This document shows, piece by piece, positions 14,479 through 30,930 of a DNA stretch of 32,000 nucleotides (positions are counted from its first letter, which is position 1; each line of letters starts with the position of its first letter). Source of the stretch: Exiguobacterium profundum. Its GTDB lineage: Bacteria > Bacillota > Bacilli > Exiguobacteriales > Exiguobacteriaceae. The notes under the pieces were generated by a model. That model was not told where the DNA came from. It was given only the letters and a program-made list of their open reading frames with translations, and did not search any database. The stretch lies in assembly GCF_025234635.1 (NCBI RefSeq), contig NZ_JANIEG010000004.1; one strand, written 5' to 3'. Made by a program: the position numbers and the translations under genes.

Positions 14479-17400
14479 TTGCGTAAACTCATGCAATACA
14501 TAGCGGTTCTCGTATTAATCATATCCATTATTCCACAGAGAGTAGTTGCGGAGACCAATCAACCGATTTTAAACGTGTTGGTTCTTCGTGATGCTTTTAC
14601 TGCTTCGAAAGTACTTTCAGTGACTGAATACAATAATGCGGTGAATTCGTATCGTGCTTCACTGAATGTAAATACTGCAAAAGTGAATGCGCAATTCATG
14701 ACAATTAAACAATTTAACGCATCCCGTTTTCCGATGACAGGTGCATTCGATGCGGTCATGATTGGGAGCAGTCCTTTAACTGAGAAATATAAAAATGGGG
14801 CGCTTGTCGTCAACTCGAAAAATCATGACACGACAAATCAATTGAACGATTTGACAGAATTGAAAGCTACGGAACTATTTAATACAGTTGTCCGTGTCGG
14901 CTTGCCGCTTCTGATGCATGAGGATGCTGCGAACGGCGATACACAGTTAAAACGCTTGGCAGCCTATCAACGTGATTATGCGAACGTGAAAGTCTTTAAT
15001 CGAAATGATCAACAGAATGTCGATCGTGAGATGGCGCAGCAGTTGAATCAACTCACCATTTCCCGTCCGAGATTTCAATCAACTGAAGTGAAGTACAACA
15101 ATCAGTCGATTAGCAATCAGACGATTCAAGTAAAAGATGGTGTCCGTCATCCAATCAACTTTGCCTATACTTTATCGCAACCACCAACTCCTTCGGCATT
15201 CGTAGAATTGTATATCGATTACGACCATAACGATCGATTTGATGCGGATGAAAAAGTCATTGAGCAACAGGCAAAAGAATCGGGAACGCTCAATTTCACA
15301 TTATCGCGTCCGACGTTTAGCGGACCGAAGAACTGGATGCTCGTCGTCAAGGATTCGTTGACAGGTCGAGCGGATTATCGTAAGGGGAGTATTCTTTACC
15401 TCGATGAAAAAGTGAAAGCGAACATCTTACAGCTCACTGCAGGAACTGGCACGAACGGAAGAATTTCAAGCTATTTATCTAATATGTTAGTAGACCCGTC
15501 TGGGAATTATGAATTCAATTTAACGGACGGTACAACGAGTCAGTTTGAGGGTGGTACTTATGATCAGGCATTACTCAATAACGACTACGATATGCTGATC
15601 TTTGGTTTCCAAGATTCGTACAACGTTTATGGAAGCATGAATGCTGCGGCCACTGCGAAAGTTAAACGTTTCAGTGAAACAGGACAAGGCGTCATGTTGA
15701 CGCACGATACGATTTTCCGTACGAATAGTTCGTCATCGCCTACGTCCGAGTGGGAACGTCAATTTGTGAATGCCAATCCTTCACTGAATATCTCAGGGCA
15801 AAAAATGTACACGAACATGGGATTTGGTGCTCCTGAAACAACCAATAAGGCAGTCAAGGTACAGGATGGGATTTTCACTTCTTATCCGTATCGCCTCGAC
15901 GATTCGATTAAAAATATCTCAAATACCCATAACCAATATTTCACACTCGATTTGAATGATCCGGATGTGACGCCTTGGTACAACCTGTATTCAACAGGTG
16001 GAAATCGTGTATATGGAGATGCAAACAATCATTACTATACGTATACAAAAAACAATTTCACCTACTCCGGTGCTGGGCACACAAACAAGTTTTCGGTAGA
16101 AGATGAGAAGAAAATCTTCATCAATACGATGTATCGCGCCTTTATCGGAGCAAATCATAAACCTTACAACGTGATTGAGTCCGTCAGTGATTCAAACCAG
16201 TCCTATACTTCTGCTGATTTAAAAGCCGGGTCTGTCGAAGTGACTGCGGGACAAGATGTCAAATTGATGTGGCGGCCGAGCGATTATGACTTCCAAGACT
16301 TGTTCCTCAATTCAACAATCACGTATAACGGGAAACAGGTCGCATTCGATAACTTACGCAACTACGAAGTTAAAGAGTTTACGATTCCGGCAGCGGATGT
16401 TGTCGCAGATCGGCCGATTGAAGTGAAAATCGAGACGTCCGATCAACGGAATGCGAAGGTGATCGATACGTTCACCATCAACGTCAAACGTGCGGAGAAT
16501 GTTTCCGACTTGATTCAAGTGTCCCGTTCGATTGACCCGTCGACAATCAACTTGTACGAAACGGGAACGATTCACTATCAAGTTCAATATCCTGAACGTT
16601 TCGATCGATTGCCGAATCAGTTGGGCGATAAGTTTTTACGAGTGGATTCAACCTCTTTCTCAGAAAAACTGCCAAGTCAACTCGAAGTCGTGGCGATTCG
16701 TGACGCGAACGGAAATGAATATCCTGTCACGAAGCCGAATGAAATCAAGTTACAGTTGAAGCCGGACTTGTACTATGAACGAAATGGGAACACGAACATT
16801 TTCCTTCCGAACGATAGTGGAGACCGGACCGTGAAGTTTGAAGTAGTCGTCCGAGCCATCGAGCCTTCTGCCTCACTCATCCAGTTGAAAAAAGCGGATA
16901 ACCAATTAACGACGTTAATTGAGTATTCGAAGAAGCAAGATCACATTTTAGATAAACTTAACGACTGGGATAAGGAATTAGAGGTTCAATCATCGTTCCC
17001 AGACTTGCTGATCAATATCGGGGCGCCGTATGCGTATGAAGCGAAGATTCCTGACGTCACCTTACAAATTGGGGCACAGCAAATTGTGAGTCCGACCATC
17101 ACGGATGCGAAAGGAAACACCTTTACGAACCCGAAATGGAGTAGCTTGAAGTGGGAAATCGTCGATGCGAGCGGTGTCGCGAGACTCGTCACGCAAGGGA
17201 ACAATGCGATTGTGACCGGTTTGAAAACAGGAACTGCGAAGTTGCGATTGACAATCGATCCGGGCGATAAGAGACCCCTTGTCGTAGCGGAGTCGAAAGT
17301 CAATGTAATCAGTCCACCTGAGCAACTTACTATTCAGTCGAAAGAGTTGTATGTCGGTCAAACGACTACGGTCACACCAAAAATCATGCCCGAAACGGCT

Positions 17401-18213
17401 CAATACAAGTCGGTTCGCTATGTCGTCGAATCTGGGGATAGTGTGAAGTTTGAACAAGTTGGCAACAACTTGAACATCATTGGACTGAAACCAGGTACGA
17501 CTCAGTTTAAGGCGACTGTGGATGTCGGTGACCTCTTCGGTGGCTTGAATATCGCTACTCCGAGCACCGTCTTTACCATCCAAGTCAAGGCACCATCCTT
17601 GAGCCAAACGCCGAGCCAACTCGACCTTTGGGTATGGGATAGTTTGGATGAAGAAAAACGCGTGAACGAAGTCGCCTCGATTCAAGTGACCTCAACACCA
17701 ACCGTATCCATTCCGTTTGAACGAATCGGGTCCATCCCATCTGCTTTGACGGTGACACAAAGTGCGACAGGATATGAATTACGTGCCAACCATGGTTACG
17801 GAAATAATGGTGTCGTGACTGACATTCCAATTCAGACGACATTCGATGACAATGCGTTACGAAACATTCGTTCGAACACGTCGATTGTCCGTGTCAACGA
17901 ATACCCGAACCAATTGATGTCAAAAGACATGACAATCAATATTGGTGAAGGGACGGCACCACGACTACCTCTTCTTGATTACTGGCCTACGACTTCGACT
18001 TGGCGTGACTATCGCATGGAGATTGTATCCGGCGAAGAATATGTTCAAGTGAGTGGATCAGGAAAAGAGTTGATTCCAGTGAAACCTGGTGTGGCGAAAG
18101 TGGAAGTCTACACGACGCTTCCGGCTGGAAAACCGTTTGAAGCCGTGAAGGACACGTTTTATGTACGCATCATCCAAACGAATGCCTCGGGACAGGATGA
18201 TGACCGTTATTAA
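14479..18213 (+). CDS. Large secreted multidomain protein: two alpha/beta (GATase1/ThuA-like, possibly DUF5057-type) modules, Ig-like domains and C-terminal Big_2 repeats
   Basis: Likely TTG start at 14479, 8 nt after AGGGAGG, giving signal peptide MRKLMQYIAVLVLIISIIPQRVVA|ETNQ (the ORF track starts at 14449). It has Big_2-like repeats with VTGLKTGTAKLRL, IIGLKPGTTQFKA and LIPVKPGVAKVEV. There is no LPXTG motif, no prepilin motif and no TM anchor. Spot-counted lines gave 23/60 and 24/60 G+C. Confidence 0.85.
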   Translation: MRKLMQYIAVLVLIISIIPQRVVAETNQPILNVLVLRDAFTASKVLSVTEYNNAVNSYRASLNVNTAKVNAQFMTIKQFNASRFPMTGAFDAVMIGSSPLTEKYKNGALVVNSKNHDTTNQLNDLTELKATELFNTVVRVGLPLLMHEDAANGDTQLKRLAAYQRDYANVKVFNRNDQQNVDREMAQQLNQLTISRPRFQSTEVKYNNQSISNQTIQVKDGVRHPINFAYTLSQPPTPSAFVELYIDYDHNDRFDADEKVIEQQAKESGTLNFTLSRPTFSGPKNWMLVVKDSLTGRADYRKGSILYLDEKVKANILQLTAGTGTNGRISSYLSNMLVDPSGNYEFNLTDGTTSQFEGGTYDQALLNNDYDMLIFGFQDSYNVYGSMNAAATAKVKRFSETGQGVMLTHDTIFRTNSSSSPTSEWERQFVNANPSLNISGQKMYTNMGFGAPETTNKAVKVQDGIFTSYPYRLDDSIKNISNTHNQYFTLDLNDPDVTPWYNLYSTGGNRVYGDANNHYYTYTKNNFTYSGAGHTNKFSVEDEKKIFINTMYRAFIGANHKPYNVIESVSDSNQSYTSADLKAGSVEVTAGQDVKLMWRPSDYDFQDLFLNSTITYNGKQVAFDNLRNYEVKEFTIPAADVVADRPIEVKIETSDQRNAKVIDTFTINVKRAENVSDLIQVSRSIDPSTINLYETGTIHYQVQYPERFDRLPNQLGDKFLRVDSTSFSEKLPSQLEVVAIRDANGNEYPVTKPNEIKLQLKPDLYYERNGNTNIFLPNDSGDRTVKFEVVVRAIEPSASLIQLKKADNQLTTLIEYSKKQDHILDKLNDWDKELEVQSSFPDLLINIGAPYAYEAKIPDVTLQIGAQQIVSPTITDAKGNTFTNPKWSSLKWEIVDASGVARLVTQGNNAIVTGLKTGTAKLRLTIDPGDKRPLVVAESKVNVISPPEQLTIQSKELYVGQTTTVTPKIMPETAQYKSVRYVVESGDSVKFEQVGNNLNIIGLKPGTTQFKATVDVGDLFGGLNIATPSTVFTIQVKAPSLSQTPSQLDLWVWDSLDEEKRVNEVASIQVTSTPTVSIPFERIGSIPSALTVTQSATGYELRANHGYGNNGVVTDIPIQTTFDDNALRNIRSNTSIVRVNEYPNQLMSKDMTINIGEGTAPRLPLLDYWPTTSTWRDYRMEIVSGEEYVQVSGSGKELIPVKPGVAKVEVYTTLPAGKPFEAVKDTFYVRIIQTNASGQDDDRY

Positions 18214-18217
18214 GTGA

Positions 18218-18880
18218 ATGGCAGAAAGTTGGCGAATGATGAATCGCAAGCGAATAATGATTGGCATCACCGGATTGATTCTCGTCATCGGATTGGGAGG
18301 GCTCCTGTACTGGAGTCAATCCCAACCCGAGCTCTCGCAGTTATCCGGTGACGAGTTAGTGAAAGAAGTGAGTCAACGCTCTTCGGTGACAGAAGAAGAA
18401 TTGACAGATTTACAGGCAAGGGAAGAATGGGAGGCCGTCCGACTTGTTTTAGAGGACCAAAAAGTTGTGCCGACAGCCGAACAATTCGCCACAGCAGTGA
18501 CGCTCGCACCTCTAGACGTGATTGAAGCATACTTCGAGCAAGGGATTGACCCGTTCGAGGAAGTGGAAGGGATTCCCGTTATCACACCATTGTTCAGTGC
18601 GAACGGCAGTCCGGATCAATGGAAGTTGGCGATGCGTTATGTTGAAGACGATCGACTTCTTGGCATCGCGGTCGACTCGTTGAACCTTGATGCGGTCAAA
18701 GAACTCCTCGGACAAGGCTATATGATTCAAGATACCGAATCGGTGTTATTGCAGCCAGTCCGTCACAATCAGGTCGAGTTGACGCAACTGCTTCTCGATA
18801 ACGGCGCGCAATGGACGAAAGCAATGGAACAGATGGCCAAAGACTACAACTCGGACCTCATTTTAAAGATGGGGAACTAA
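18218..18880 (+). CDS. Membrane-anchored protein with ankyrin-repeat-like C-terminal region
   Basis: Starts 4 nt after the stop of the giant gene. N-terminal TM segment IMIGITGLILVIGLGGLLYW. Ankyrin-like helices LGIAVDSLNLDAVKELLGQGY and LLQPVRHNQVELTQLLLDNGAQ. The ATGs at 18236 and 18239 are alternative starts. Confidence 0.7.
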   Translation: MAESWRMMNRKRIMIGITGLILVIGLGGLLYWSQSQPELSQLSGDELVKEVSQRSSVTEEELTDLQAREEWEAVRLVLEDQKVVPTAEQFATAVTLAPLDVIEAYFEQGIDPFEEVEGIPVITPLFSANGSPDQWKLAMRYVEDDRLLGIAVDSLNLDAVKELLGQGYMIQDTESVLLQPVRHNQVELTQLLLDNGAQWTKAMEQMAKDYNSDLILKMGN

Positions 18881-18884
18881 AAAA

Positions 18885-18922
18885 ATCGGCTTCTTCTCAA
18901 TCAGAGAGGAAGCCGATTTTTT
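18885..18922. terminator. Bidirectional terminator between convergent operons
   Basis: ATCGGCTTCTTCTC / GAGAGGAAGCCGAT with one G-U pair and a 5-nt loop. Flanked by AAAAAA upstream and TTTTTT downstream. Confidence 0.85.
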
Positions 18923-18926
18923 GAAT

Positions 18927-20576
18927 TCATTTCAATTGAACCGGATGACTGACGAAGAATTGAAGTTGATTCGTGACCGGTAATGTTTCAAGTTGATTGA
19001 ACACGGAATCGTTATACGTCAGTTTTAATCGAGACTTTTCGGCTTCGTGAGCTGGAACTTGACGGTCGAAGTTCTCAGCTGGGCTTAAGCCGTTGCCCCC
19101 AGTAAATTCCCCTCTAAAGACGTTCACTTCGAGTGGTCCTTTACTGTACAGACCTCCGTTGACTTCGAGAATAGATCCGACCGCATACACATAGGTCGGT
19201 TCGTTCGAGTCACTATACATGAACGCCTGGAGCGTCGTCGGAGTGTCATCAAACTCGTTGATTCGGTTCAACAGAATCTTTCCTTTGGATAACAGGATGA
19301 GTGAGTTCCCTTTGTCTGCATCAATCGGAAGAATATTGGCTCGGTCGATGAACGTATCACCGAGCGTGTAGACTGTCGAACTGAAGGAGACGTTCCCTTT
19401 AATGGTCAAGTCACCACGTACGATCAGTGGCCGTGCAATCGTCAGCTTCTCGAGTGATTCAATGACGACGTCCCCGTCGAAAAGAAGCGGGGCATTCGAC
19501 TCGGTGATGGATTCCGTGACATACATGGCGCGATCCGAAATGGCATCCGGTAATGTCACGATGGTCGGGTCGGTGAGGGCGTTGTAGGCATCCGCCCGTA
19601 AGTACGAAGTCGGGCGTTCGATAATAGATGTCCCATCTTCCGAGAGCACGCGCTCGAGTTCGAACACTTGATTGGTCGAGCGAATCAGACCTTCTTCAAA
19701 GATTATTGAATCGACGTCATTTGTGTATGCGAGCGGTGTGTCGAGTCGTCGATTTAAAAATTCGATGATTGAGTAGTCGTATTGGAATGGAGAAAAGCGA
19801 CTCGGGGACACCCCGGCGTCTGCCTTCTCGCCAGCTTGTTCCGGACCTACCGTGAAGTAGTTCTCTTGCTGGCAACTCAAGCAATCGCTCAATTCGACTA
19901 AATCGATTCGGCCATTCAAGTGAAGACGACTAGAATCGACATTTTCAATCTGCTTCGCCACACCATCCAATTGGAAGTTCGCTTGACGCATGAAAGCGAG
20001 AGGACCACCTGAATAGATATTTCCTTGAATCGTCGGCATGCCGTTCACGTCCAACTGTTGGTCGGACCCGAGGACGTAGTATAAAAAGGACGGGAGAGCC
20101 GTCAAGTATAAGTCTTGCGTGTATTCAACGGTAAGCATCGGTTGTTCCGGATTCACTTGTCGCGATGCCGTGACGTTCACTTGGAGAATCGTCGTGAACG
20201 GCGCCGTCTGAATGGCGGTATCCGTAGCATCTTTCTTCAGCTCGATGGAATAGCGGACCTCACTATCCGTAGTCAATGCCGTGAACGGTTCGTCACTGAC
20301 GATGAGCGACTGAACCTTGCTTTGGAATGCCGCTTCCGATTCCATATGAGTCGGGACTTCCGCTTCTCCGTGAAGCGGGAACTGGGTCCGAACCTCATCG
20401 GCGATGAGGCGAAGTGCGCTTTTCGCATCTTCATTCAGTTGAGTATCTTCTGTACGGATGACCGTCAATTTATTCGACGCCAAGTTGACTTGCATGGCGG
20501 CGAGCGAGAGGACGGCGAGAGCCGCCATCGTCACGAGAACAAGCACGAGAACATATCCGTCTTCACGTTTTCGCAT
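18927..20576 (-). CDS. Large PilX/PilK(GspK)-like minor pilin-like protein (549 aa)
   Basis: The ATG at 20576 is preceded by a perfect AAGGAGG. N-terminus MRKREDG|YVLVLVLVTMAALAVLSLAA is a prepilin-like leader and hydrophobic helix lacking Glu+5. The long C-terminal part has repetitive beta-helix-like G/N-rich segments. It is the last gene of the minor-pilin operon. Confidence 0.75.
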   Translation of the reverse strand: MRKREDGYVLVLVLVTMAALAVLSLAAMQVNLASNKLTVIRTEDTQLNEDAKSALRLIADEVRTQFPLHGEAEVPTHMESEAAFQSKVQSLIVSDEPFTALTTDSEVRYSIELKKDATDTAIQTAPFTTILQVNVTASRQVNPEQPMLTVEYTQDLYLTALPSFLYYVLGSDQQLDVNGMPTIQGNIYSGGPLAFMRQANFQLDGVAKQIENVDSSRLHLNGRIDLVELSDCLSCQQENYFTVGPEQAGEKADAGVSPSRFSPFQYDYSIIEFLNRRLDTPLAYTNDVDSIIFEEGLIRSTNQVFELERVLSEDGTSIIERPTSYLRADAYNALTDPTIVTLPDAISDRAMYVTESITESNAPLLFDGDVVIESLEKLTIARPLIVRGDLTIKGNVSFSSTVYTLGDTFIDRANILPIDADKGNSLILLSKGKILLNRINEFDDTPTTLQAFMYSDSNEPTYVYAVGSILEVNGGLYSKGPLEVNVFRGEFTGGNGLSPAENFDRQVPAHEAEKSRLKLTYNDSVFNQLETLPVTNQLQFFVSHPVQLK

Positions 20577-20592
20577 CAGGATGCCTCCTTTC

Positions 20593-21102
20593 TTAGAATG
20601 GGATGGAGCTTTCAAATGTCGTAACAGAATCGGAATCGTTTGATTGAGTCAAATCCAACTCGATTTCGATGAGTCCACCGGTCATGTAAGTCGGGCGTCT
20701 CGGATCGAACACGGGATCTTTTAACTGGATGGTCATCCGTTCGACTGTGATTTGTGGATTAGAAGGCGTAAACGAATCCTCTGAGAGAACCAAGTCGGTC
20801 GGGACGTATCCCGCCTCCCGGTAAATCATTCCGGTTTCCGATATGTCTGGAGCGGACAATCGATAAAATTGAAACGAGCCGTCCACTTCCGTCACGGCGT
20901 CGAATTCGGTCCGGTTCACGTCAGAGAGCACGGAGGCAATCAAATAGTCGGCCTCGCTTCGAAGGTCACTCGTCTCGTTCGTCATTTGAAAACCGAGCGT
21001 TCCAGTGATAAAGGCCGTAATGATGACGCCACTTAAAATCGAAGCGACGACGACTGTGACGAGCAACTCGACGAGCGTGAAGCCGTCTTCACGTTTCTCC
21101 AT
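20593..21102 (-). CDS. Minor (pseudo)pilin with prepilin-type N-terminal cleavage/methylation motif
   Basis: MEKREDG|FTLVELLVTVVVASIL from the ATG at 21102, 1 nt after the upstream stop. The ORF-track start at 21156 would give an unusually long leader. Confidence 0.85.
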   Translation of the reverse strand: MEKREDGFTLVELLVTVVVASILSGVIITAFITGTLGFQMTNETSDLRSEADYLIASVLSDVNRTEFDAVTEVDGSFQFYRLSAPDISETGMIYREAGYVPTDLVLSEDSFTPSNPQITVERMTIQLKDPVFDPRRPTYMTGGLIEIELDLTQSNDSDSVTTFESSIPF

Positions 21103-21103
21103 C

Positions 21104-21559
21104 TCAGTCAGTTGTCGGGACAGCCGTTTCAGGGAACGGTTCGCGCAATGTCGCATTCGAAATGACTCCTTTCAAGGTGACGGGCGTTTGCAAACGGTCG
21201 GTCGTCACCGAAATTTCAACTTCAATTGTATGTCCGGGTGAAGTGGACAGCGATTGAATGGTTGCGATATACGTATCCCCATGGATTCGGGTATCTTCGC
21301 AGAAGTCGCACGTCGAGCTGATCCCGTCCCGATTCAACAATTGACGCAGTTCGAGCGGTTCATCAACGGACGCGGCCCGTCGATTTAAAGTATGTAACGT
21401 GTTTTGCGCCACTTGGTTCGCAATCGTTTGATTGAGGCTGTCGTGTGTCGTCTTCAAACTTTGGCTGAAAATCGAAAGTAAAGAGAATGAGACAATTGAA
21501 AGAACAACGATGGAGACGAGCACTTCGACGAGCGTAAAACCTTTTTCGGAATGCGACAA
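21104..21559 (-). CDS. Minor (pseudo)pilin with prepilin-type N-terminal cleavage/methylation motif
   Basis: TTG start at 21559, 8 nt after AGGAGG. N-terminus MSHSEKG|FTLVEVLVSIVVLSIV. Confidence 0.88.
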   Translation of the reverse strand: MSHSEKGFTLVEVLVSIVVLSIVSFSLLSIFSQSLKTTHDSLNQTIANQVAQNTLHTLNRRAASVDEPLELRQLLNRDGISSTCDFCEDTRIHGDTYIATIQSLSTSPGHTIEVEISVTTDRLQTPVTLKGVISNATLREPFPETAVPTTD

Positions 21560-21716
21560 GACATTGACCTCCTATTCAAAAAAAGTAAAACAATCGGAAA
21601 ATAACGTATGCAATACTGAATTAAATGTTATTTTTTGTACAATACATATTATACTAAAGTTATACGCTGAACGGATATATAGAATAGAAGTCGGATTAGA
21701 CACGGGGGGATTTTAC
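21560..21716. promoter_or_regulatory. AT-rich divergent promoter region between the minor-pilin operon (-) and the vanW-like/pilB operon (+)
   Basis: 157-nt AT-rich spacer between divergent start codons. A perfect TATAAT reads on the minus strand at 21653-21648. I could not assign a convincing -35 element. Confidence 0.5.
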
Positions 21717-22931
21717 ATGAAGCGGTATGGGATGCATCTTATCATTTTGATTGGACTCGTCGTACTCGTGACATTACCGACGATTGGACTCGTCAATTAC
21801 TTAGATGCGTCTGCTGAGTCGAGTGCTACATACAAAAAAGATACGACGGTCGCAGGTGTCGACGTATCAGGGATGACGAAAGAAGAAGCGGACGTTCGTC
21901 TCGATAATGCGATTAAAGATTTTAATACGACACCCTTTTCAATCAATTTGATGGATGGGACGGTCATGGAGATTGGAAAAGAAGTCGTGACGTTCGATGT
22001 ATCGAATACGTTAGACTCCATTAAAGATACAGGTGACTATCCGCTGTTGACATCCGTAGATGAAACGAAAGTCGAGCCTTATCTCGAAGGTCAACCCGTC
22101 ACGCTGACGATGATTGCCCCGGCGTTGATGGATGCCGCATCGATGTTGGAGTCATCTGTGACATTAGAGCAAGTCGCGGCAGAAAATGAAGTCGTCGCCT
22201 CGTTCACTGTGAGCCCGACACCGGCTATGCAGTCAGCCCTTGATCGAATGAACGGATTCGAGATGGCAGCGGGAGACATCTTTAGTCTCAAATCGTTCGG
22301 AGAAGATTACGAAGCGCTCACTACATTAGGGTCTTCATTCTATCGCCTATTTGCGGCGACACCGTTCGCCATTCTCGAACGTGTGCCTCACGAAACACTT
22401 CCTTCCGGGGTAGAGCTAGGCTATGACACGAAAGTAGATGAGCGCTCGAACTTTGCTGTTCAAAACCGAGAAGACACATCATATGCCATCCTCGTTTTGA
22501 ATGAAGGGGGTTCTGTGACGGTTCAATTGCTCGGTCAACCTTTTGACGCCGCTTTCGAAGCGAGAGTTGAAGAAGTGAAGACGGTACCGCATCAAAAAGT
22601 CGTTCGCTTCTCATCTTCGCTCCCGTCAGGCAGTTCATCGGTCACCCAGTCAGGTCAAGATGGACAGTCAGGTAAGCTCTACCGGGTCACTGTGACTGAA
22701 GAAGGGGAGACGTTGGAATTACTCGGGTTTGATTTTTATGCACCGACACCGGAAATCGTGACGAAGAGTTCCGTTCCGCTTCCGCCACCGGATCCGGTCG
22801 AACCGGTCATCCCGACATTCCCGGATGAGGACGAGGAAGAAGACCCGTTCCCGAATGATTCGAACGACGACCCATTTGAGGCAGAACCGCCCGTATTAGA
22901 AGAACCTGCAGAAGAGGAGGCAGTGGGATGA
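21717..22931 (+). CDS. Membrane-anchored YoaR/VanW-family-like protein (PG_binding_4-like, degenerate VanW, G5-like, acidic Pro-rich tail)
   Basis: ATG at 21717 after GGGGGGA. TM anchor HLIILIGLVVLVTLPTIGLV. It has VAGVDVSGMTKEEADVRLDNAI (PG_binding_4-like), and GDIFSLKSFGE...LGSSFYRLFAATPFAILERVPHE...GYDTKV (VanW-like layout without the usual GGG-C-Q signature). It also has TQSGQDGQSGKLYRVTVTEEGE (G5-like) and a tail PPPDPVEPVIPTFPDEDEEEDPFPNDSNDDPFE. Confidence 0.7.
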   Translation: MKRYGMHLIILIGLVVLVTLPTIGLVNYLDASAESSATYKKDTTVAGVDVSGMTKEEADVRLDNAIKDFNTTPFSINLMDGTVMEIGKEVVTFDVSNTLDSIKDTGDYPLLTSVDETKVEPYLEGQPVTLTMIAPALMDAASMLESSVTLEQVAAENEVVASFTVSPTPAMQSALDRMNGFEMAAGDIFSLKSFGEDYEALTTLGSSFYRLFAATPFAILERVPHETLPSGVELGYDTKVDERSNFAVQNREDTSYAILVLNEGGSVTVQLLGQPFDAAFEARVEEVKTVPHQKVVRFSSSLPSGSSSVTQSGQDGQSGKLYRVTVTEEGETLELLGFDFYAPTPEIVTKSSVPLPPPDPVEPVIPTFPDEDEEEDPFPNDSNDDPFEAEPPVLEEPAEEEAVG

Positions 22932-23218
22932 TCGGCTATTTGATTTTACTCGGCTTTTGGGTACTCGCCACATTGACACTGTTCGCTTTATCCGTTCCGA
23001 TGACGAGAAAACGTGAAACGAAGCTTGTCATCAGCCTGTGGACTGCCCTTCTGTCTGGTGGCGTCTATTTGATGGTAGAAGAATCACTCGTTCAAACATG
23101 GTGGGCATGGGTGATTCTTATCGTTGCATTGATTGGAGGGGTGGCTGCGAGCGTCTTTGTCGAAGAACGGAACGACAAGACCGAGCAGGAGGAGGCTCCT
23201 CAAAGGATGGTGAAGTAA
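22928..23218 (+). CDS. Small integral membrane protein (3 predicted TM segments), unknown function
   Basis: ATGA overlap with the upstream gene. Three hydrophobic segments and a charged C-terminus EERNDKTEQEEAPQRMVK. It ends 1 nt before the pilB start. Confidence 0.7.
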   Translation: MIGYLILLGFWVLATLTLFALSVPMTRKRETKLVISLWTALLSGGVYLMVEESLVQTWWAWVILIVALIGGVAASVFVEERNDKTEQEEAPQRMVK

Positions 23219-23219
23219 C

Positions 23220-24890
23220 GTGAGACGAACGAAACGAAGATTAGGTGAGATGCTCATCGAGGCTGCGCTCATTACGACGAGTCAGCTCGATGAGGCGCTT
23301 GCACAGAAGCGTCCCGGAGAAAAACTAGGGGATGCTTTAATTCGACTAAACCATATTACCGAGACACAGTTGATTCAAATGATTCATGAACAGCTGCATG
23401 TGCCAATCATTGAGTTGTACTCCTACGACATCAATGTGACGGTCACGAAGCTCGTACCGAAAGCGTTGGCACAAAAGCACGATATCATGCCATTTGAATT
23501 GAACGGGAATACGCTTCATGTCGCGACGGCCGACCCACTCGATCTCATTGCCATTGATGACGTCCGTCTTCAGACCGGGATGAACATCGAGATCGGCATC
23601 GCCACGAGAGAGCAGATTCGAAAGACGATCAGTCGTTACTACGAGATGGACCACTCCCTCGTCGAAATTTTGAAAGAAGATGCTCCCGAAATCGAACGAC
23701 AAGAAACAATTAGTCGAGACGATGCACCGATTATCCGCCTCGTGAACCAATTGTTCTTAAGCGCCATCGACCAACGTGCATCGGACATCCATTTCGATCC
23801 ACATGAGAAGCAACTCCACGTCCGTTTTCGAATTGATGGGGACTTGCGTACCGAGACGGTCTATCCGAAAAAGATTCAGAGCGTCATGCTGACGCGTCTT
23901 AAAGTCATGAGTAACCTCGACATCACAGAAAGTCGTCTGCCACAAGATGGACGGATCAAGTACACGCTACGCAATCGCGCCTATGATTTCCGCGTCTCGA
24001 CGCTCCCGACGATGTATGGAGAGAAAATCGTTATTCGGGTCCTCGACTCATCTCAAGGACTGACCGATTTGACGAAACTCGGATTTGGCGAACGAAACGA
24101 ACAGGCGTACCGTGACATGCTGAAACGTCCGAATGGAATTATCTTGATCACCGGTCCGACCGGTTCAGGGAAATCCTCGACATTGTATGCTTCGTTAAAA
24201 GAACTGAATGATGAGACGAAAAACATTATTACGGTAGAAGACCCGGTCGAGTATCAACTTGACGGCATCAACCAGGTTCAAGTCAACTCGAAAGTCGGCT
24301 TGACGTTCGCGTCAGGGCTTCGTTCGATTTTACGTCAAGACCCGAACATCGTCATGGTCGGAGAGATTCGAGACACGGAGACGGCTGAGATTGCCATTCG
24401 TGCCTCGCTCACCGGTCACCTTGTATTGTCAACGCTACATACGAATTCAGCAATCAGCTCCATCACCCGTCTCGTCGATATGGGAGTTGAGCCGTTCCTC
24501 GTCGCCGCTTCGACGACGGGACTCGTGGCACAACGACTCGTTCGACGCGTCTGTCGTGATTGTGGTCAAGTCGAACCGGTATCGAAGAGTGAACGTAGCC
24601 TGTTCGACGCTGAAGGTGTTCACATCGACCAGATTATTCGGGGTAAAGGCTGTGCGTCATGCAACTTCACAGGGTACCGTGGGCGCCTCGCCATTCACGA
24701 AGTCATCCCGATTGATGAAGGCTTGCGCCGGATGATCATGAACCAGGCGACCGAGTCTGAGATGGTCGACTATGCCAAGTCACAAGGAGCGACATTCCTG
24801 CTTGAGGACGGATTAGAAAAAGTCGCCGCCGGTTTGACGACGACTGAGGAAATATTACGAACGGTCATTACGGAGAATGCTTATGATTAA
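23220..24890 (+). CDS. pilB: Type IV pilus assembly (extension) ATPase PilB (GspE family)
   Basis: N-terminal T2SSE_N/MshEN-like repeats RLGEMLIEAALITTSQLDEALAQ and KLGDALIRLNHITETQLIQMIHEQ. Walker A ITGPTGSGKSST. Asp and His boxes. Tetracysteine CRDCG...CASCNFTGYRGR. GTG start. Confidence 0.95.
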   Translation: MRRTKRRLGEMLIEAALITTSQLDEALAQKRPGEKLGDALIRLNHITETQLIQMIHEQLHVPIIELYSYDINVTVTKLVPKALAQKHDIMPFELNGNTLHVATADPLDLIAIDDVRLQTGMNIEIGIATREQIRKTISRYYEMDHSLVEILKEDAPEIERQETISRDDAPIIRLVNQLFLSAIDQRASDIHFDPHEKQLHVRFRIDGDLRTETVYPKKIQSVMLTRLKVMSNLDITESRLPQDGRIKYTLRNRAYDFRVSTLPTMYGEKIVIRVLDSSQGLTDLTKLGFGERNEQAYRDMLKRPNGIILITGPTGSGKSSTLYASLKELNDETKNIITVEDPVEYQLDGINQVQVNSKVGLTFASGLRSILRQDPNIVMVGEIRDTETAEIAIRASLTGHLVLSTLHTNSAISSITRLVDMGVEPFLVAASTTGLVAQRLVRRVCRDCGQVEPVSKSERSLFDAEGVHIDQIIRGKGCASCNFTGYRGRLAIHEVIPIDEGLRRMIMNQATESEMVDYAKSQGATFLLEDGLEKVAAGLTTTEEILRTVITENAYD

Positions 24891-25920
24891 TCAATCGATC
24901 GAAACCATCTTGACGAATGCGGTCGAGAAACGCGCCTCGGATATTCATCTGACAGCCGGTTCTCCTCCGATCATTCGAGTAGACGGGAGTCTTATTACGA
25001 TGGGCGAGGAGAAGGTGTTGCCGCACCATCTCGAAGGATATTTAAAAGAAATCATGACCGACGATATGCGCGAACGTCTCGAGCATGAACGAGATCTTGA
25101 TTTCTCGTTCGGCGTTCCACGTGTCTCCCGTTTTCGGGTCAACGCCTATTATCAACGAGGCACGATTGCCATCGCGTTCCGGTCCATTTCCGGGGAAATC
25201 CCGACTTTGAACGAACTCAATCTGCCGACGGTACTGAAGCGTCTGATTGAGAAACCACATGGTCTTATCTTGGTCACGGGTCCGACGGGTTCAGGGAAAT
25301 CGACGACGCTCGCGGCGATGATTCATGAAATCAATCGGACGCAGCGAAAACGAATCATCACGCTAGAAGATCCGATCGAGTATTTACATTCCCATGACCA
25401 AAGTATTGTCGACCAACGGGAAATCGGCTCTGACGTCATGAAATTTGTGAGTGGTCTAAGGGCCGCCTTACGGCAAGACCCTGACGTCATTCTGCTCGGG
25501 GAGATGCGTGACTTGGAGACCATCTCGACGGCGATGACCGCCGCAGAGACGGGGCACCTCGTCATGGCAACGCTCCATACATCGAGTGCGATGTCGACGG
25601 TGAGTCGAATCATCGACGCGTTCCCAGCTGAGCAACAGGACCAAATCCGGACACAACTCGCGAACGTCTTACTCGGTGTCGTGAGTCAACGGTTATTTCC
25701 ACGGATTGATGTGCCGAAAGGACGCGTCGCCGCCATGGAAATCATGTTAGGGAATCCGGCTGTTGCCAACTTGATTCGAAATGAAAAAGAGTTCCAGTTG
25801 CCGACCGTCATCCAGACGAGTCGCCAGCACGGGATGCAGTCGATGGATGCTGCCATCGAACAACTTGTTCGGCAAGGGATCATCAATCCGAACGCCGTCC
25901 CGACAGAAGAGATGAGGTGA
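24883..25920 (+). CDS. pilT: Type IV pilus retraction ATPase PilT
   Basis: RASDIHLTAGSPPIIRVDG, Walker A VTGPTGSGKSTT, and PAVANLIRNEKEFQL (AIRNLIRE-like). About 345 aa with no N-terminal extension. The ATG at 24883 lies 7 nt after GGAG; the ATG at 24877 is the ORF-track alternative. Confidence 0.93.
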   Translation: MINQSIETILTNAVEKRASDIHLTAGSPPIIRVDGSLITMGEEKVLPHHLEGYLKEIMTDDMRERLEHERDLDFSFGVPRVSRFRVNAYYQRGTIAIAFRSISGEIPTLNELNLPTVLKRLIEKPHGLILVTGPTGSGKSTTLAAMIHEINRTQRKRIITLEDPIEYLHSHDQSIVDQREIGSDVMKFVSGLRAALRQDPDVILLGEMRDLETISTAMTAAETGHLVMATLHTSSAMSTVSRIIDAFPAEQQDQIRTQLANVLLGVVSQRLFPRIDVPKGRVAAMEIMLGNPAVANLIRNEKEFQLPTVIQTSRQHGMQSMDAAIEQLVRQGIINPNAVPTEEMR

Positions 25921-25926
25921 TGAGTG

Positions 25927-27144
25927 ATGGCGATATTTCAGTATGAAGGAAAGCTCCTGAACGGGAAGCGTAAGAAAGGTCGCGTCACGGCCGTCTCGCT
26001 TCGGGAAGCGAAAGAAAAGTTGCGTCAAGAATCTATTCTCGTAACGGACTTGGCCGAGCTCGAATCGACTGGACTGAACAAAGAGGTCAACTTGCTGCCA
26101 GAACGAGTCAAAATCGAACACTTGATCATGTACGTCCGTCAGTTCGCGACGCTCATCCGGGCGGGTGTCCCGATTGTTCGTGCGACTTCAATCTTACGGG
26201 TACAGACCGAGTCGAACGTATTGAAGAAAGCACTGAGTCAAATCGAGGATGATTTGAAGGAAGGGATTGCCTATTCCGAGGCGATCAAAAAGCACCCACG
26301 AGTCTTTTCGAACTTCTTTAGTTCGATGGCACTTGCCGGGGAGACGAGCGGGAACTTGGAGGAGGCGCTCGATCAAATCGGGCTCCAACTTCAAAAACAA
26401 TATGATGTGAAGCGGAAGGTCATTTCTGCCCTCACGTATCCGTTTGTCGTCTCCATCGTCGCCATTGGCGTTGTCGCCTTTTTAATGGTGAACGTCGTCC
26501 CGACGTTTGCGAGCATCTTTGGTCAACTCGGCGGTGAGCTTCCGCTCATCACGCGCATTGTCGTCGCGGTCTCCGATTTCATCGCGACCTTCTGGTGGTT
26601 GTTACTCGGACTCGCGATTCTTGGAGTTCTCACCTTCACCTGGATGTTGAAGCGGGACCGGGAACGATTCGTCATCGATGGCTTGCTATTGAAGATGCCG
26701 ATTTTTGGAACGATTGTGATGAAGTCTCAGATTGCATTGCTAACGCGAAGTTTAGCGGTCCTTCTACAAGCGGCCGTCCCGATTTTGACGGCGATTGAAA
26801 TCACCGAACGTATCGTATCGAACCGCGTCATCCGGAAAGGACTGACGGAGGCACGTGACATGATGGCGCAAGGGGTTCCGCTTCACGAGCCGCTCATGCG
26901 AAATGCGAACTTCCCGGCACTCATGACTCAGATGATCGCCGTCGGGGAAGAGAGCGGTGATTTGGATTCGATGTTGAACGAAGTCGCTGAGTTTTATGAG
27001 ACGGAGGTCGAGACGACAACCGACCGCTTGAAGTCGATTATCGAGCCACTTCTCATCGTCGTATTGGCAAGTGTCGTCGGGGTCATCGTCATCTCGATCG
27101 TCGTCCCGATGTTCCAAATCTATGGTGATATTCAGAATCAGTAA
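25927..27144 (+). CDS. pilC: Type IV pilus platform protein PilC (T2SS F family)
   Basis: MAIFQYEGK... N-terminus, duplicated T2SSF-type domains, three hydrophobic spans, and C-terminal VVPMFQIYGDI. The ATG at 25927 follows GAGGTGA; the GTG at 25924 is an alternative. Confidence 0.93.
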   Translation: MAIFQYEGKLLNGKRKKGRVTAVSLREAKEKLRQESILVTDLAELESTGLNKEVNLLPERVKIEHLIMYVRQFATLIRAGVPIVRATSILRVQTESNVLKKALSQIEDDLKEGIAYSEAIKKHPRVFSNFFSSMALAGETSGNLEEALDQIGLQLQKQYDVKRKVISALTYPFVVSIVAIGVVAFLMVNVVPTFASIFGQLGGELPLITRIVVAVSDFIATFWWLLLGLAILGVLTFTWMLKRDRERFVIDGLLLKMPIFGTIVMKSQIALLTRSLAVLLQAAVPILTAIEITERIVSNRVIRKGLTEARDMMAQGVPLHEPLMRNANFPALMTQMIAVGEESGDLDSMLNEVAEFYETEVETTTDRLKSIIEPLLIVVLASVVGVIVISIVVPMFQIYGDIQNQ

Positions 27145-27160
27145 AGCAATATGCAAGCTT

Positions 27161-27200: not shown

Positions 27201-27285
27201 GTAAAATTGTTCTACTTCTATATTAGGTCTAAAGTAATTTATCTAGTTTACACACAGCACATTACGTAAAAGGGGAGAATGAATT

Positions 27286-27762
27286 ATGGTAGAGAAGTTG
27301 AAAATGATTTGGCAAGATGCCAAACAGTTAAAAGATGAGCGTGGGCTCACACTCGTCGAGTTACTCGTCGTCGTCGTTATTTTAGGAATTATCGCAGCCA
27401 TCGCAGTCGTTGCGATTGGTGGGATCATCGAAAACTCGAAGAAAGATGCAATGGTCGCCGATGCGAAACAAATGGTTAGTGCGGCGAAGTTGTATGTTGC
27501 TTCGAATGAAGTAGGCAACGGAGCGGTGATTCGATTCGTCGGAACAACAGGAACTGGTGAACTCGACGCTAAAAATATGATTGATACAATGAAAGATCCG
27601 TTCGGTTCGAACTACAATAACGGGGTTGTATATGTCACAAAAGGGTCAGACAATAAGTATACGTATAAAGTATGGCTTGATGGAGCCAAAGATATCGGAA
27701 CTGCAGCTACGGATGCAGGCACGGTTGCAAGTAGTGGATTGAAGAAAGACTCAGTTAACTAA
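27286..27762 (+). CDS. pilA: Major type IV pilin (prepilin)
   Basis: Leader MVEKLKMIWQDAKQLKDERG| followed by LTLVELLVVVVILGIIAAIAVVAI, with Glu at +5 and Leu rather than Phe at +1. RBS AGGGGAG lies 8 nt upstream. 158 aa, no cysteines. It has its own promoter and terminator. Confidence 0.92.
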   Translation: MVEKLKMIWQDAKQLKDERGLTLVELLVVVVILGIIAAIAVVAIGGIIENSKKDAMVADAKQMVSAAKLYVASNEVGNGAVIRFVGTTGTGELDAKNMIDTMKDPFGSNYNNGVVYVTKGSDNKYTYKVWLDGAKDIGTAATDAGTVASSGLKKDSVN

Positions 27763-27774
27763 TATTTGCTTATG

Positions 27775-27820
27775 CCGGCTGGCGCTGGGCACTCGCTCAG
27801 CCTAGCCGGTTTTCTATTTT
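27775..27820 (+). terminator. Imperfect terminator/attenuator hairpin after pilA
   Basis: CCGGCT (27775-27780) pairs with AGCCGG (27804-27809), enclosing a partly self-complementary GC-rich segment, followed by TTTTCTATTTTT. Confidence 0.6.
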
Positions 27821-27851
27821 TGGCATATACTGACAAAAGGAGGGTCCTTCC

Positions 27852-28604
27852 TTGATTGAATCGATTGGATTCCTATATAGCATCGTCCTCGGGGCGGTCA
27901 TCACATCGTTCACCAACGTCGTCGGGCTCCGCGTGCCACGTCAGCAATCGATTGTGACGCCGCGGTCACATTGTCCGTCTTGCGGTCACGAATTGTCACC
28001 GTGGGAACTCATCCCGATTTTCGGCTATCTCGCCTTAAGAGGCAGATGTCACGGGTGTGGCGAGCGGATCGCGCCGACGTATCCGATCTTTGAATTACTT
28101 GGAGCCATTGGATATGGCTATAGCTTTTCACTCTACGGATTTAGTGTGACGACGCTTCTCGCGTTCGCTTTCTTGTCGACCTTACTCGCTTTGGCGATGT
28201 CTGATTTATCGACGATGCTCGTGCCGAATGTCATCTTGCAATTCACGGCACCGGTATTACTCCTCCTCACCTATCTGACAGGGGCATCTTGGTGGACGCC
28301 ACTTGTGGGGGCGTTGCTCGGATTTTCGCTCCTAGCGACCGTCTTTTTCGTGTCAAAAGGGGGACTTGGGGCAGGGGACGTCAAATTGTTTACTATGATT
28401 GGTCTTGTGCTCGGTCCGCGTGACGTGCTCGTTGCCTTGTTTCTATCGAGTTTGATTGGGGCAATTGTCGGGATCGGGTTGATGATCACAAAAAAAATCG
28501 GGCGAAAGCAACCGATTCCGTTTGTCCCGTCGATTGCGCTCGGGACGATGTTGACGTTTTGGTTTAGTGAAAGTTTTTTTGATTGGTATTTTGAGTTGAT
28601 GTAG
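27852..28604 (+). CDS. pilD: Prepilin peptidase / N-methyltransferase (A24 family; ComC/PilD)
   Basis: Zn-finger CPSCGHEL...RGRCHGCGE and catalytic Asp contexts AMSDLSTMLVPN and GAGDVKLF. TTG start 7 nt after AAAGGAGGG. It occupies the position of B. subtilis comC downstream of folC. Confidence 0.93.
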   Translation: MIESIGFLYSIVLGAVITSFTNVVGLRVPRQQSIVTPRSHCPSCGHELSPWELIPIFGYLALRGRCHGCGERIAPTYPIFELLGAIGYGYSFSLYGFSVTTLLAFAFLSTLLALAMSDLSTMLVPNVILQFTAPVLLLLTYLTGASWWTPLVGALLGFSLLATVFFVSKGGLGAGDVKLFTMIGLVLGPRDVLVALFLSSLIGAIVGIGLMITKKIGRKQPIPFVPSIALGTMLTFWFSESFFDWYFELM

Positions 28605-28616
28605 GGGGAAACGATC

Positions 28617-30188
28617 ATGAGTCGTGGGATAGAGAAAGGGACGGTCACGTATTTTTCGTTTGATGCGCTCAGCATCCACGGGGCCGTCATCAAACAAGGG
28701 GTGTTCAAACGAAGCGCCTCGGTTCAGTTAGCAAAAGATGCGTATGGAGAAGGGAAGATTCTCGATGAGACGGCGTTCAGTCTCGCTTTCGATGAACTCT
28801 GTCGCAAGTTGAAAGTGCGACGCGGGATGACGTGTGCGGTGGCATTGGACGAGACCGAAGTGTTGTCACGGAAAGTCGAGATTCCTTCTTCGATTCCGAA
28901 GGACGAGATTCGTGGCTATCTCTTCATGGAAATCGGGAGTTCGATTATCTTGCCGTTCGATGACGTGTCGTTCGACTACGAAGTGTTAGGAGAAGACGGG
29001 GTCAAGACGGACGTTATGTTGCATGCCGTTTCGATTGAATTGACGAAGTCGCTCCGTGCGTACATGAAAAAGCGTGGTCTAGCGTTGAAGAAGATCACGC
29101 CACGTTCTGTCGCGGTCGCCAATGGGGTCATACGTTTATCGGAGATTGATCCGCTTCAATCGACATTACTCTGGCATATCACGCCGTTTTCACATCAATT
29201 GCTCGTCCTTGAGGAAGGGCAGATCCGTTTCATCCGCTCGATTGAACTGGACCTCCCGTACCAAGTCGGGACGAAAGATGGTGTCGTGACCTATACATAT
29301 GATGGGACCGGTGAGATGAAGGCTAATCAGTTGGATGACTGGTTGAACGAACTCGCTCGCTTCCTCGATTTCTATCGTTACTCGCTGCGGACGGATGGTC
29401 GGGCCATCGATGAGTTATACGTCTCGGGAACTGTTCCGGAAGTCGATGATCTCGTCCGTATGATTCAGGCTGAGTCCCTCGTCTCGGTGACGCGTGTCGA
29501 GCAACCGCTCGCCATCGCTCACGGGACACCTCTATCGCATCAAATGTTGCCACTCCTTGGGATGGCGACGCTTCAGCGCGATCGTGACACGAACTTCATC
29601 AATTCGACGGACGTGACACTCCGTTGGCCGATCGTGACAGGTCTCGTCGCCCTTCTTCTCGGAGGAGGGGCGGCCGGATACTTGTACTATGAGGTCGACC
29701 AACTAAAAGCAGAACAGACGCGAATCGAAGAAGAGTTACAGCTCGTTCAAATTTACCAAACCGAACAAGTGAATTCGAAAGCGCAACAAGTGCTCTCGCT
29801 CGACCAAACCGTGACGGCGTTGACCGACATGGAAAAGGATGCGGTCCCAGCACTGCGCGCGTTGACTGAGCAGTTGCCGCCTACTGGCTACGTCTTGACG
29901 TATAACTACGCGGATGGCTCCATCATGAGCGTCCGAACTCAATTCGAGACGTTAGAAGACTTGAACGCATTCCAGCGCTCGCTCATGACCGATGAGCGGT
30001 TCCTCGACGTCAAACTCCTCGGTGTGACGACGGAGTTGAAAGCGGATGTGGATGCAGAAGAAGAGGAAAACTCATTAGAAGAAGATCCGCTTCCACGCTA
30101 TATCGGAGAGTTTACGTTCATGTTCCAAGACGTGGAAGACGAGTTGACAGAGGAAGAGGACACGGATGAGGAGGTGGTGAGTCAATGA
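28617..30188 (+). CDS. pilM: PilM-PilN fusion protein (cytoplasmic actin-like domain, TM segment, coiled coil) with acidic C-terminal tail
   Basis: About 340 aa of PilM-like region (LLWHITPFSHQLLVLEEGQIRFIRSIEL), then TM WPIVTGLVALLLGGGAAGYLYY, then PilN-like coiled coil EVDQLKAEQTRIEEELQLVQ. The tail is rich in E/D. It sits between pilD and pilO. Confidence 0.75.
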   Translation: MSRGIEKGTVTYFSFDALSIHGAVIKQGVFKRSASVQLAKDAYGEGKILDETAFSLAFDELCRKLKVRRGMTCAVALDETEVLSRKVEIPSSIPKDEIRGYLFMEIGSSIILPFDDVSFDYEVLGEDGVKTDVMLHAVSIELTKSLRAYMKKRGLALKKITPRSVAVANGVIRLSEIDPLQSTLLWHITPFSHQLLVLEEGQIRFIRSIELDLPYQVGTKDGVVTYTYDGTGEMKANQLDDWLNELARFLDFYRYSLRTDGRAIDELYVSGTVPEVDDLVRMIQAESLVSVTRVEQPLAIAHGTPLSHQMLPLLGMATLQRDRDTNFINSTDVTLRWPIVTGLVALLLGGGAAGYLYYEVDQLKAEQTRIEEELQLVQIYQTEQVNSKAQQVLSLDQTVTALTDMEKDAVPALRALTEQLPPTGYVLTYNYADGSIMSVRTQFETLEDLNAFQRSLMTDERFLDVKLLGVTTELKADVDAEEEENSLEEDPLPRYIGEFTFMFQDVEDELTEEEDTDEEVVSQ

Positions 30189-30892
30189 AACGTTCGACAA
30201 TCTACGCGTTATTTGCGATTTGCCTCCTTGCCGCAATCATCGCACCGGCTTACTTTGGCTATACGTATTACGTCAAACAAGGAGAGGTCGAAGCGCTTGA
30301 ACGCGACCTCTCGCTCGAACAAACAAAACTGGAGTTATTGCGCCAAGAAGGAAAAGCCGTTGATGTAGCGGACTCTCAGACGCTTCAGACACGGGTTCCA
30401 ACAGTTCCTGCCCTCGACACGGTCGTTGAGGCGTTGTCGCAGGCAAGTCTTCTTGCGGGTGTCAATGTGACAAGTATCGCATTTGCGGATGGCGTTGTGG
30501 CTGAGTCAGAAGTGCCGGAAACGGTCGAGCCGTTCAATCCGGCTGATGTGAGTGCGACGAATGAACCGGCTGAACCAACGGACGTTGCACCTGTCAACGC
30601 TTCGACGGTCCGTTCAACGGTCAACTTGCAAGCAGAGACGTATGAAGCGCTCGTCTCCTTCTTGGAGTCGATCGAGTCGATGAATCGGATTCACGTGTTA
30701 CGGACGGTTCAATTTACCGGACCTGCCGAGACGGGACCGAATACGGTCGAAGAAGTGCAGTCGCTCGAGTTTACAGTCGAGCTTGATGCCTTCTATCGTC
30801 CGGACCTCGACCAACTCGTTCCAGACCGATACATTCCGGAACCGGCGTTTGAGCAAAAGGATATCCCGGTATACGACTATACGACACCATAA
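30185..30892 (+). CDS. pilO: PilO-like pilus alignment protein
   Basis: ATGA overlap with the upstream gene. N-terminal TM IYALFAICLLAAIIAPAYFGY, then coiled coil GEVEALERDLSLEQTKLELLRQEG, then a ferredoxin-like C-terminal region. An acidic, Pro-rich linker is inserted. Confidence 0.75.
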   Translation: MKRSTIYALFAICLLAAIIAPAYFGYTYYVKQGEVEALERDLSLEQTKLELLRQEGKAVDVADSQTLQTRVPTVPALDTVVEALSQASLLAGVNVTSIAFADGVVAESEVPETVEPFNPADVSATNEPAEPTDVAPVNASTVRSTVNLQAETYEALVSFLESIESMNRIHVLRTVQFTGPAETGPNTVEEVQSLEFTVELDAFYRPDLDQLVPDRYIPEPAFEQKDIPVYDYTTP

Positions 30893-30897
30893 GTCGG

Positions 30898-30930
30898 CAC
30901 GTCCCTTCGCAATTGAAGGGGCGTGTTTTT
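30898..30930 (+). terminator. Rho-independent terminator ending the pilus operon
   Basis: CACGTCCCTTC / GAAGGGGCGTG with one G-U pair and a 6-nt loop, followed by TTTTT. Confidence 0.8.

Follow-up and report, generated by a model that had tools for sequence, protein, structure and literature searches.

Genes of the folC-maf interval

The window analysed here is a 32,000-nucleotide stretch of the Exiguobacterium profundum genome (assembly GCF_025234635.1, contig NZ_JANIEG010000004.1), and between its folC and maf genes lies a region of ~16.5 kb (14.4-30.9 kb of the window) carrying the genes of a type IVa pilus (T4aP). Genes were identified from a six-frame list of open reading frames (ORFs) and from Pfam and NCBIfam profile scans of the window proteins, and all frames of the folC-maf region are open. 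An earlier note, written from the sequence of the window, had placed in this interval pilB, pilT, pilC, pilA, pilD, a pilM-pilN fusion and pilO, together with a convergent three-gene minor-pilin operon and four non-canonical genes, and each of these was found where the note had put it. The interval it gave, 14479-30930, is right in content and too long at its end, as the last gene stops at 30892. The core assembly genes, all on the plus strand, are the following:

23220-24890, + strand: pilB, extension ATPase with an MshEN-type N-terminal domain (T2SSE 467 bits, MshEN 76 bits)
24877-25920, + strand: pilT, retraction ATPase (TIGR01420 470 bits, cut-off 319)
25924-27144, + strand: pilC, platform protein (two T2SSF domains, 197 bits)
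27286-27762, + strand: pilA, major pilin (N_methyl 30 bits)
27852-28604, + strand: pilD, prepilin peptidase, in the position of comC (A24_N_bact 107 bits, Peptidase_A24 65 bits)
28617-30188, + strand: pilM-pilN fusion with an acidic tail (PilM_2 42 bits, cut-off 27)
30185-30892, + strand: pilO-like gene with an N-terminal transmembrane helix (PilO match below cut-off)

Both ATPases are intact, as had been claimed, with the Walker A sequence GPTGSGKS in each. PilB additionally has a four-Cys motif, and its top matches in the PDB are PilB and PilF (E 1e-149). The N-terminus of PilB passes the MshE-type motif model for cyclic diguanylate (c-di-GMP) binding, NF053729, with 55.5 bits against a cut-off of 38. 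PilT aligns with Aquifex PilT (2ewv) over 328 residues at E 2e-101, and the Walker A, Asp box, Walker B and His box motifs of the two proteins coincide. The PilC and GspF models are matched by the platform protein over their full length. In PilD, the catalytic Asp118 and Asp176 and four Cys are invariant among 14 homologues. The major pilin has a class III signal peptide, reading DERG followed by LTLVELLVVVVILGII, with Gly at -1, Glu at +5 and a hydrophobic alpha1N segment; cleavage after the Gly would leave LTLVELLVV as the mature N-terminus. Its best PDB match is PilE1 of Streptococcus sanguinis (8pfb). The PilM-N fusion has a transmembrane helix and a coiled coil beyond residue 335, and the labels PilN and PilO that we propose rest mainly on position and topology.

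Convergent to the first genes of the region, an operon on the minus strand encodes three further pilins:

21104-21559, - strand: minor pilin, PilV/GspI/ComGE-like (leader MSHSEKG followed by FTLVE; N_methyl 32 bits)
20593-21156, - strand: second small minor pilin (N_methyl 29 bits, TIGR02532)
18927-20576, - strand: large minor pilin of 549 amino acids, GspK/PilX/ComZ-like

The ComGE, PilV and GspI models match the first of these with E values from 1e-10 to 1e-7, none of them reaching its cut-off. The second probably starts at 21102, with MEKREDG ahead of FTLVE. The large pilin has a leader resembling those of its two neighbours, MRKREDG, here followed by YVLVLV, so that it has neither a Phe at +1 nor a Glu at +5; it is 91% identical to a protein of E. 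marinum. An AlphaFold2 model of this protein (predicted local distance difference test, pLDDT, 84.6) consists of an N-terminal helix of 60 residues, a pilin-like beta-sheet and a beta-solenoid, and its sole significant PDB match is the competence pilin ComZ of Thermus thermophilus (6qvi; E 1.4e-7, probability 1.00). With a template modelling (TM) score of 0.24-0.26 and 13% identity, the two proteins share architecture only. Set against the core minor-pilin set of GspH/I/J/K-like proteins, the operon thus offers three: an I-like pilin, the second small pilin and the K/ComZ-like pilin. Together they probably form a priming and tip complex.

The remaining four genes have no counterpart among the canonical pil genes:

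14449-18213 (start possibly 14479), + strand: secreted DUF5057/Big_2 protein of 1254 amino acids (DUF5057 32.7 bits, cut-off 27.9)
18218-18880, + strand: protein of 220 amino acids with an N-terminal transmembrane helix; starts 4 nt past the DUF5057 gene
21717-22931, + strand: membrane-anchored VanW-like/G5 protein of 404 amino acids (G5 29.5 bits, cut-off 23; VanW 25.2 bits, cut-off 27)
22928-23218, + strand: small membrane protein of 96 amino acids (no family above cut-off)

The DUF5057 protein carries a Sec-type signal peptide and lacks an anchor as well as sortase and pilin motifs. It shares 94% identity with a protein of Exiguobacterium sp. s59 and 69% with EAT1b_2653 of strain AT1b; further homologues, uncharacterised and named after the DUF5057 domain, occur in Neobacillus, Cytobacillus, Aneurinibacillus, Paenibacillus, Brevibacillus and Cohnella, and homologues adjoin pil genes in loci L015, L016, L020, L022 and L023. 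The AlphaFold2 model of residues 35-760 (pLDDT 87.5) shows two alpha/beta domains plus beta-sandwiches. A search of the PDB with this model gave nothing informative (multi-domain beta-sandwich look-alikes at TM ~0.12 and a weak match to an oligosaccharyltransferase subunit), and a literature search on DUF5057 found no paper. The protein might be an adhesin or a substrate, which is a guess on our part. In locus L014, from one genome of the genus (G002:C2, 13600-15100), the DUF5057 gene and the 220-residue gene are replaced while the remainder of the locus is retained; the replacement shares just the Big_2-like C-terminal repeats, at 25% identity over 300 amino acids.

The 220-residue protein gives only a weak Ank_2 match (E 0.013) and is kept in part of the genus, at 84% and 42% identity, being absent from L014 and L015. 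The 96-residue protein is 60-87% identical across the genus. The VanW/G5 gene opens the assembly operon, and 31 of the 53 full loci of other Bacilli introduced below have a homologue of it in the same orientation as pilB and within 1.5 kb ahead of that gene; one could speculate that its product serves cell-wall passage or anchoring of the pilus. Acidic, Pro/Glu-rich low-complexity stretches are present in PilM-N (29990-30188), in the VanW/G5 protein (22800-22931) and in the PilO-like protein (30500-30892).

Genome context, conservation and flanks

The genome is 2.8 Mb in size and 99.98% complete, and no secretin was found in it, as the earlier note had expected. It holds three T2SSE-type ATPases, namely pilB, pilT and one on contig 15, which is the head of a separate comGA-GB-GC-GD-(GE)-GF operon. 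N_methyl matches number six, three for each system (pil and comG), and pilD is the only A24 peptidase match. As the genome has one prepilin peptidase, maturation of the ComG competence pilins must fall to PilD as well, and we infer that it is the ComC orthologue and serves both pilin sets. The pil locus itself is not assigned to either of the two related machineries. A type II secretion system would be marked by a secretin, GspC/L/M and the lack of PilT, and here there is no secretin and PilT is there; a Com pilus would be marked by components of the ComGA/ComGB/ComGC type in a short operon lacking PilT and PilMNO, and here comG lies elsewhere, while the highest scores of the window's ATPase and platform protein are those on the PilB/GspE and PilC/GspF models, respectively.

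The locus is a stable part of these genomes. All 21 genomes of the genus and all 3 of the sister genus that were sampled have PilT; a wider sample shows it in each of 34 genomes of the family, and most other sampled families of the class have it too. The whole 16-kb folC-maf arrangement, including the DUF5057 gene, the minor-pilin operon and the VanW/G5 gene, is kept across genus and sister genus, and the accessory genes are co-inherited with the locus. In a comparison with the closest relative in the genus, at synonymous divergence (dS) of 0.4-1.3, all locus genes are full-length and have ratios of nonsynonymous to synonymous divergence (dN/dS) of 0.02-0.13 (0.03 for the second small minor pilin, 0.05 for the large one), with the exception of pilA at 0.37. 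The reading of the ATPases or the platform protein as pseudogenes, which the earlier note had named as a danger to its own proposal, was rejected on their open frames, their catalytic motifs and these dN/dS values. Compared with the closest relative, PilA shows only 60% identity and the DUF5057 protein 73%, against 96-99% for the other pil proteins. Such fast divergence relative to the neighbouring genes is expected of exposed surface parts, and the pattern suggests that their alleles were replaced or that they are under diversifying pressure.

The backbone around the locus and the putative signals that would divide it into transcription units are listed here:

1.2-6.5 kb, left backbone: hemA-hemC-hemD-hemB-hemL
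6.5-9.5 kb, left backbone: valS with a T-box leader
between valS and folC: a low-GC group of small genes, plus selO (- strand)
13175-14386, + strand, left flank: folC (TIGR01499, 342 bits)
30943-31617, + strand, right flank: maf (Maf 210 bits)
ORF following maf: radC (RadC/HHH match)
18880-18922: bidirectional terminator-like hairpin, 19-pair stem with A and T runs at its sides
21560-21716: AT-rich divergent intergenic region of 157 bp between the minor-pilin and assembly operons
27774-27821, + strand: terminator-like hairpin with a T-tract, 3' of pilA, read from the sequence

The hairpin at 18880-18922 separates two convergent units, the 220-residue gene on one side and the minor-pilin operon on the other. 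The divergent region at 21560-21716 is a candidate promoter region, and the hairpin behind pilA a putative terminator. Predicted signals are not much above shuffled counts, for consensus promoters (28 vs. 17.6 +/- 4.3) as for terminators (22 vs. 18.4 +/- 4.6), and of all predicted signals only the hairpins at 18880-18922 and behind pilA were used. A scan of the window with Rfam at gathering thresholds gave only the T-box leader of valS (6522-6743, 129 bits); no riboswitch of the Clostridioides difficile kind was detected in the pil locus. The GC content of the locus is similar to that of the flanks, except for a stretch of 43-44% G+C at 14-17 kb over the DUF5057 gene. The true start of maf is probably near 31033.

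Between valS and folC (9454-13395) the window has a low-GC group of small genes (41-44% G+C), namely a protein of 254 amino acids, a GNAT acetyltransferase and two small ORFs, and in addition selO; valS and folC are directly adjacent in the sister genus (L015, L016), and selO stands beside folC in three further genomes of the genus that we examined. The selO ORF (11638-13395, - strand) overlaps folC by ~220 nt. Matches of 70-80 amino acids to "SelO" opposite folC occur in tblastn searches even of genomes that have no selO, which shows the first ~90 codons of the ORF to be mere antisense of folC; selO itself probably begins close to 13125.

Distribution in Bacilli and the relation to comC

That a retractile T4aP locus should be something rare in this class, as the earlier note implied, is wrong at the level of genomes. 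A PilT that clears the curated cut-off is encoded by 219 of the 401 Bacilli genomes in our sample, covering 98 of 145 genera, and the pil operon of E. sibiricum 255-15 was listed as early as 2011, when Imam et al. (PMC3244431) recorded one pil and one com operon for that strain. Their catalogue, which also covers Geobacillus and Bacillus sp. NRRL B-14911, provides identifiers for the E. sibiricum ATPases, platform protein, peptidase and a pilin, i.e. the same pilB-pilT-pilC-pilin-pilD core as in the window, and reports pilT in many Gram-positive pil operons. It consists of gene identifiers only, with no account of the operon of minor pilins or the accessory genes, nor of the synteny with folC and maf and the link to comC. 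A clinical genome paper (PMC5521131) likewise lists "Type IV Pili" under the secretion genes of Exiguobacterium. The statement that such pili have hardly been studied in Bacillales does hold for experiments: according to a 2019 review on the pili of monoderms (PMC6916266), Ruminococcus, Clostridia and S. sanguinis are the only Firmicutes studied, and our literature search on Exiguobacterium and other Bacillales, with most subscription journals outside its coverage, found no experimental work on these pili.

For comparison we collected 80 named loci by a scan with a PilD profile; the genus of the window is not among these records, and its sister genus is represented by E. artemiae. Full loci with pilB, pilT and pilC make up 53 of the 80, and in 48 the order is pilB-pilT-pilC-...-pilD. 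Among the 53, maf lies downstream in 36 and a pilM-N homologue is present in 45; homologues of the pilO-like gene, which in the window follows pilMN, were found in 18 of the 80. Full loci come from Bacillaceae, Caryophanaceae (Planococcus, Sporosarcina, Lysinibacillus and relatives), Anoxybacillaceae, Paenibacillaceae and Sporolactobacillaceae, and in many named members of the first four families both gene order and neighbourhood are the same as in Exiguobacterium. A further 11 loci are reduced, reading valS-folC-pilD/comC-...-maf-radC without pilB, pilT and pilC, similar to B. subtilis, whose folC-maf interval holds comC followed by spoIIB, as the earlier note had said and as is documented in PMC7232415. 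The B. subtilis peptidase gene has the same chromosomal position and belongs to the same enzyme family as pilD of the window, the shared role in ComG maturation being suggested here by the single A24 gene; there the peptidase alone is kept, whereas here it sits within a full pilus locus, and spoIIB is missing.

In a maximum-likelihood tree of PilD the 11 loci with comC only are scattered among full-locus lineages of Bacillaceae, and branches with good support require four changes of state or more. This tree, built from one short protein, is unrooted. Since the comC-only loci nest among full loci, the isolated comC appears to be a remnant. The earlier description of the Exiguobacterium locus as filling the slot of comC is therefore better turned around, with comC more likely being what remains of such a locus. 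We consider it likely that the full locus in the folC-maf slot is old and on several occasions lost all but the peptidase, which was kept for the Com pilus. A wider claim would be that the folC-maf T4aP is ancestral in Bacilli, that comC is its last survivor, and that the VanW/G5 and DUF5057 proteins are undescribed, monoderm-specific pilus parts throughout the class; this is a tentative proposal that we hold to be somewhat less probable than its negation. One record of the scan, L086 (JAGGRA010000019.1, "Pseudomonas sp. ISL-84"), has a valS-folC-comC-maf-radC arrangement of the Bacillaceae type and a PilD that falls with Cytobacillus in the tree, and is probably mislabelled or contaminated.

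Vertical inheritance of the Exiguobacterium locus is suggested by the hemACDBL-valS-folC ... maf-radC backbone and by the use of the same slot in many families. Horizontal acquisition was considered and rejected: GC content is near that of the flanks apart from 14-17 kb, slot and gene order are common to several families, and the PilD tree follows taxonomy.

A probable retractile pilus and its alternatives

Taken together, it is very probable that the locus is the chromosomal T4aP locus of Exiguobacterium, vertically inherited and working by extension, binding and retraction. Given the gene content, integrity, conservation and synteny observed above, the system would operate as follows. PilD would cut the leader peptides off PilA and the three minor pilins. 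Assembly would then be primed by the large ComZ/GspK-like pilin together with the small I-like and J-like ones, all three ending up at the tip of the filament, while hexameric PilB on the PilC platform, held by PilM-N and PilO, would polymerise PilA. PilT would take the place of PilB and depolymerise the filament, and cycles of extension, binding and retraction could produce adhesion, twitching or both, so that dynamic, twitching-capable pili are predicted. The MshEN domain of PilB probably links extension to c-di-GMP; such control is plausible given the MshE-type motif and the 27 GGDEF matches in the genome. Finally, the same PilD would process the pilins of the ComG competence system.

Several observations weigh against this model. 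The PilB sequence covers positions 2-561 of 564 of TIGR02538 and scores 626 bits, slightly below the equivalog cut-off of 676. The PilN half of the fusion has no family match and was assigned on topology only, and the PilO match stays sub-threshold at E 0.006. A fourth, GspH/FimU-like minor pilin was not found, the genome having no further N_methyl gene outside comG. In PilT, residues 295-304 read AVANLIRNEK and not the canonical AIRNLIRE. Among the PilT proteins of the collected Bacilli loci this or a near-identical form is the commonest (signature A[VI]ANLIRNEK), and most of the ~70 sequences collected have another residue in place of the Arg at position 3, so the deviation is a trait of the lineage and not damage. 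In one relative, G009 (C1:922425-923453), pilT lies in three overlapping pieces in different frames; that assembly is a single contig and 88% complete, and assembly indels are as likely a cause as a real pseudogene.

Gram-positive relatives provide the closest parallels. The primary T4aP cluster of C. difficile and that of C. perfringens have clustered genes, no secretin, a PilM-N fusion followed by PilO, and pilins with long leaders, and such clostridial clusters contain three minor pilins, one of them large and PilK-like. The Exiguobacterium locus, with its putative PilN and PilO, resembles them in that composition (see also PMC6916266). It differs in that pilT is inside the operon between pilB and pilC, that the minor pilins form a separate convergent operon, and that VanW/G5 and DUF5057 genes accompany it; and since no c-di-GMP riboswitch was detected in the pil locus, the MshEN domain of PilB is the likelier point of control. 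The T4aP of S. sanguinis, which has PilT, is experimentally retractile and drives twitching (PMC6916266). It is likewise a Bacilli-class T4aP with PilT, and one of its pilins is the best PDB match of PilA, as noted above. The S. sanguinis system, however, comprises two major and four core minor pilins plus modular pilins with vWA and lectin modules, and is thought to have been acquired horizontally, whereas the window has a single pilA and three minor pilins in a slot inherited vertically.

The similarity of the large minor pilin to ComZ raises the question as to whether the pilus captures DNA, with a ComZ-like tip binding DNA and PilT retraction feeding ComE/ComF as in Thermus, and ComG being redundant or having another role. 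Both proteins are large minor pilins in which a pilin module is combined with a beta-solenoid, ComZ is the only significant structural match of the Exiguobacterium protein, and PilD is common to the pil and Com systems. Yet the complete comG operon is retained, and the structural likeness concerns architecture only, given the low TM-score and identity between proteins of different phyla; DNA binding would be by analogy only. Moreover, a beta-solenoid is a frequent feature of adhesins and ice-binding proteins too. DNA capture as the function of the locus is therefore unlikely in our view.

A second alternative is a pseudopilus resembling type II secretion, which would secrete or display the DUF5057 protein as its cargo and make no long motility pili. 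This would give a role to a Sec-exported, anchorless protein whose gene adjoins pil genes in several families, and it would suit the GspI-like and GspK-like character of minor pilins. PilT, PilM, PilN and PilO, however, mark T4aP and not type II secretion (PMC6916266), the cell has no outer membrane needing passage, and the supposed cargo gene is replaced in L014 and missing or replaced in most full loci of other families, which makes this explanation very improbable. Least probable of all is a silent or decaying locus in which only pilD is needed, for ComG, and which is heading to the comC-only state: that state did arise several times in Bacillaceae and pilT is fragmented in G009, but the dN/dS values of 0.02-0.13 at dS up to 1.3, the full-length genes in every relative compared and the presence of the locus in all sampled genomes of the genus, sister genus and family leave it hardly any room.

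The retractile T4aP of Exiguobacterium is, when the locus is taken alone, one more predicted Gram-positive T4aP in a widely distributed and known class. The comparative picture goes further, and suggests an evolutionary account of the isolated comC of B. subtilis in which widespread retractile loci have been reduced repeatedly. How type IV pili pass the peptidoglycan of monoderms is an open question (PMC6916266), and the conserved VanW/G5 gene heading the assembly operon is a concrete candidate for a part in pilus passage through a thick wall. Basic experiments on these Bacillales pili would be new, as our literature search found no functional study there. If the folC-maf T4aP is indeed ancestral in Bacilli, Exiguobacterium or a genetically tractable Bacillaceae relative could become a model for how pili cross the Gram-positive cell wall.

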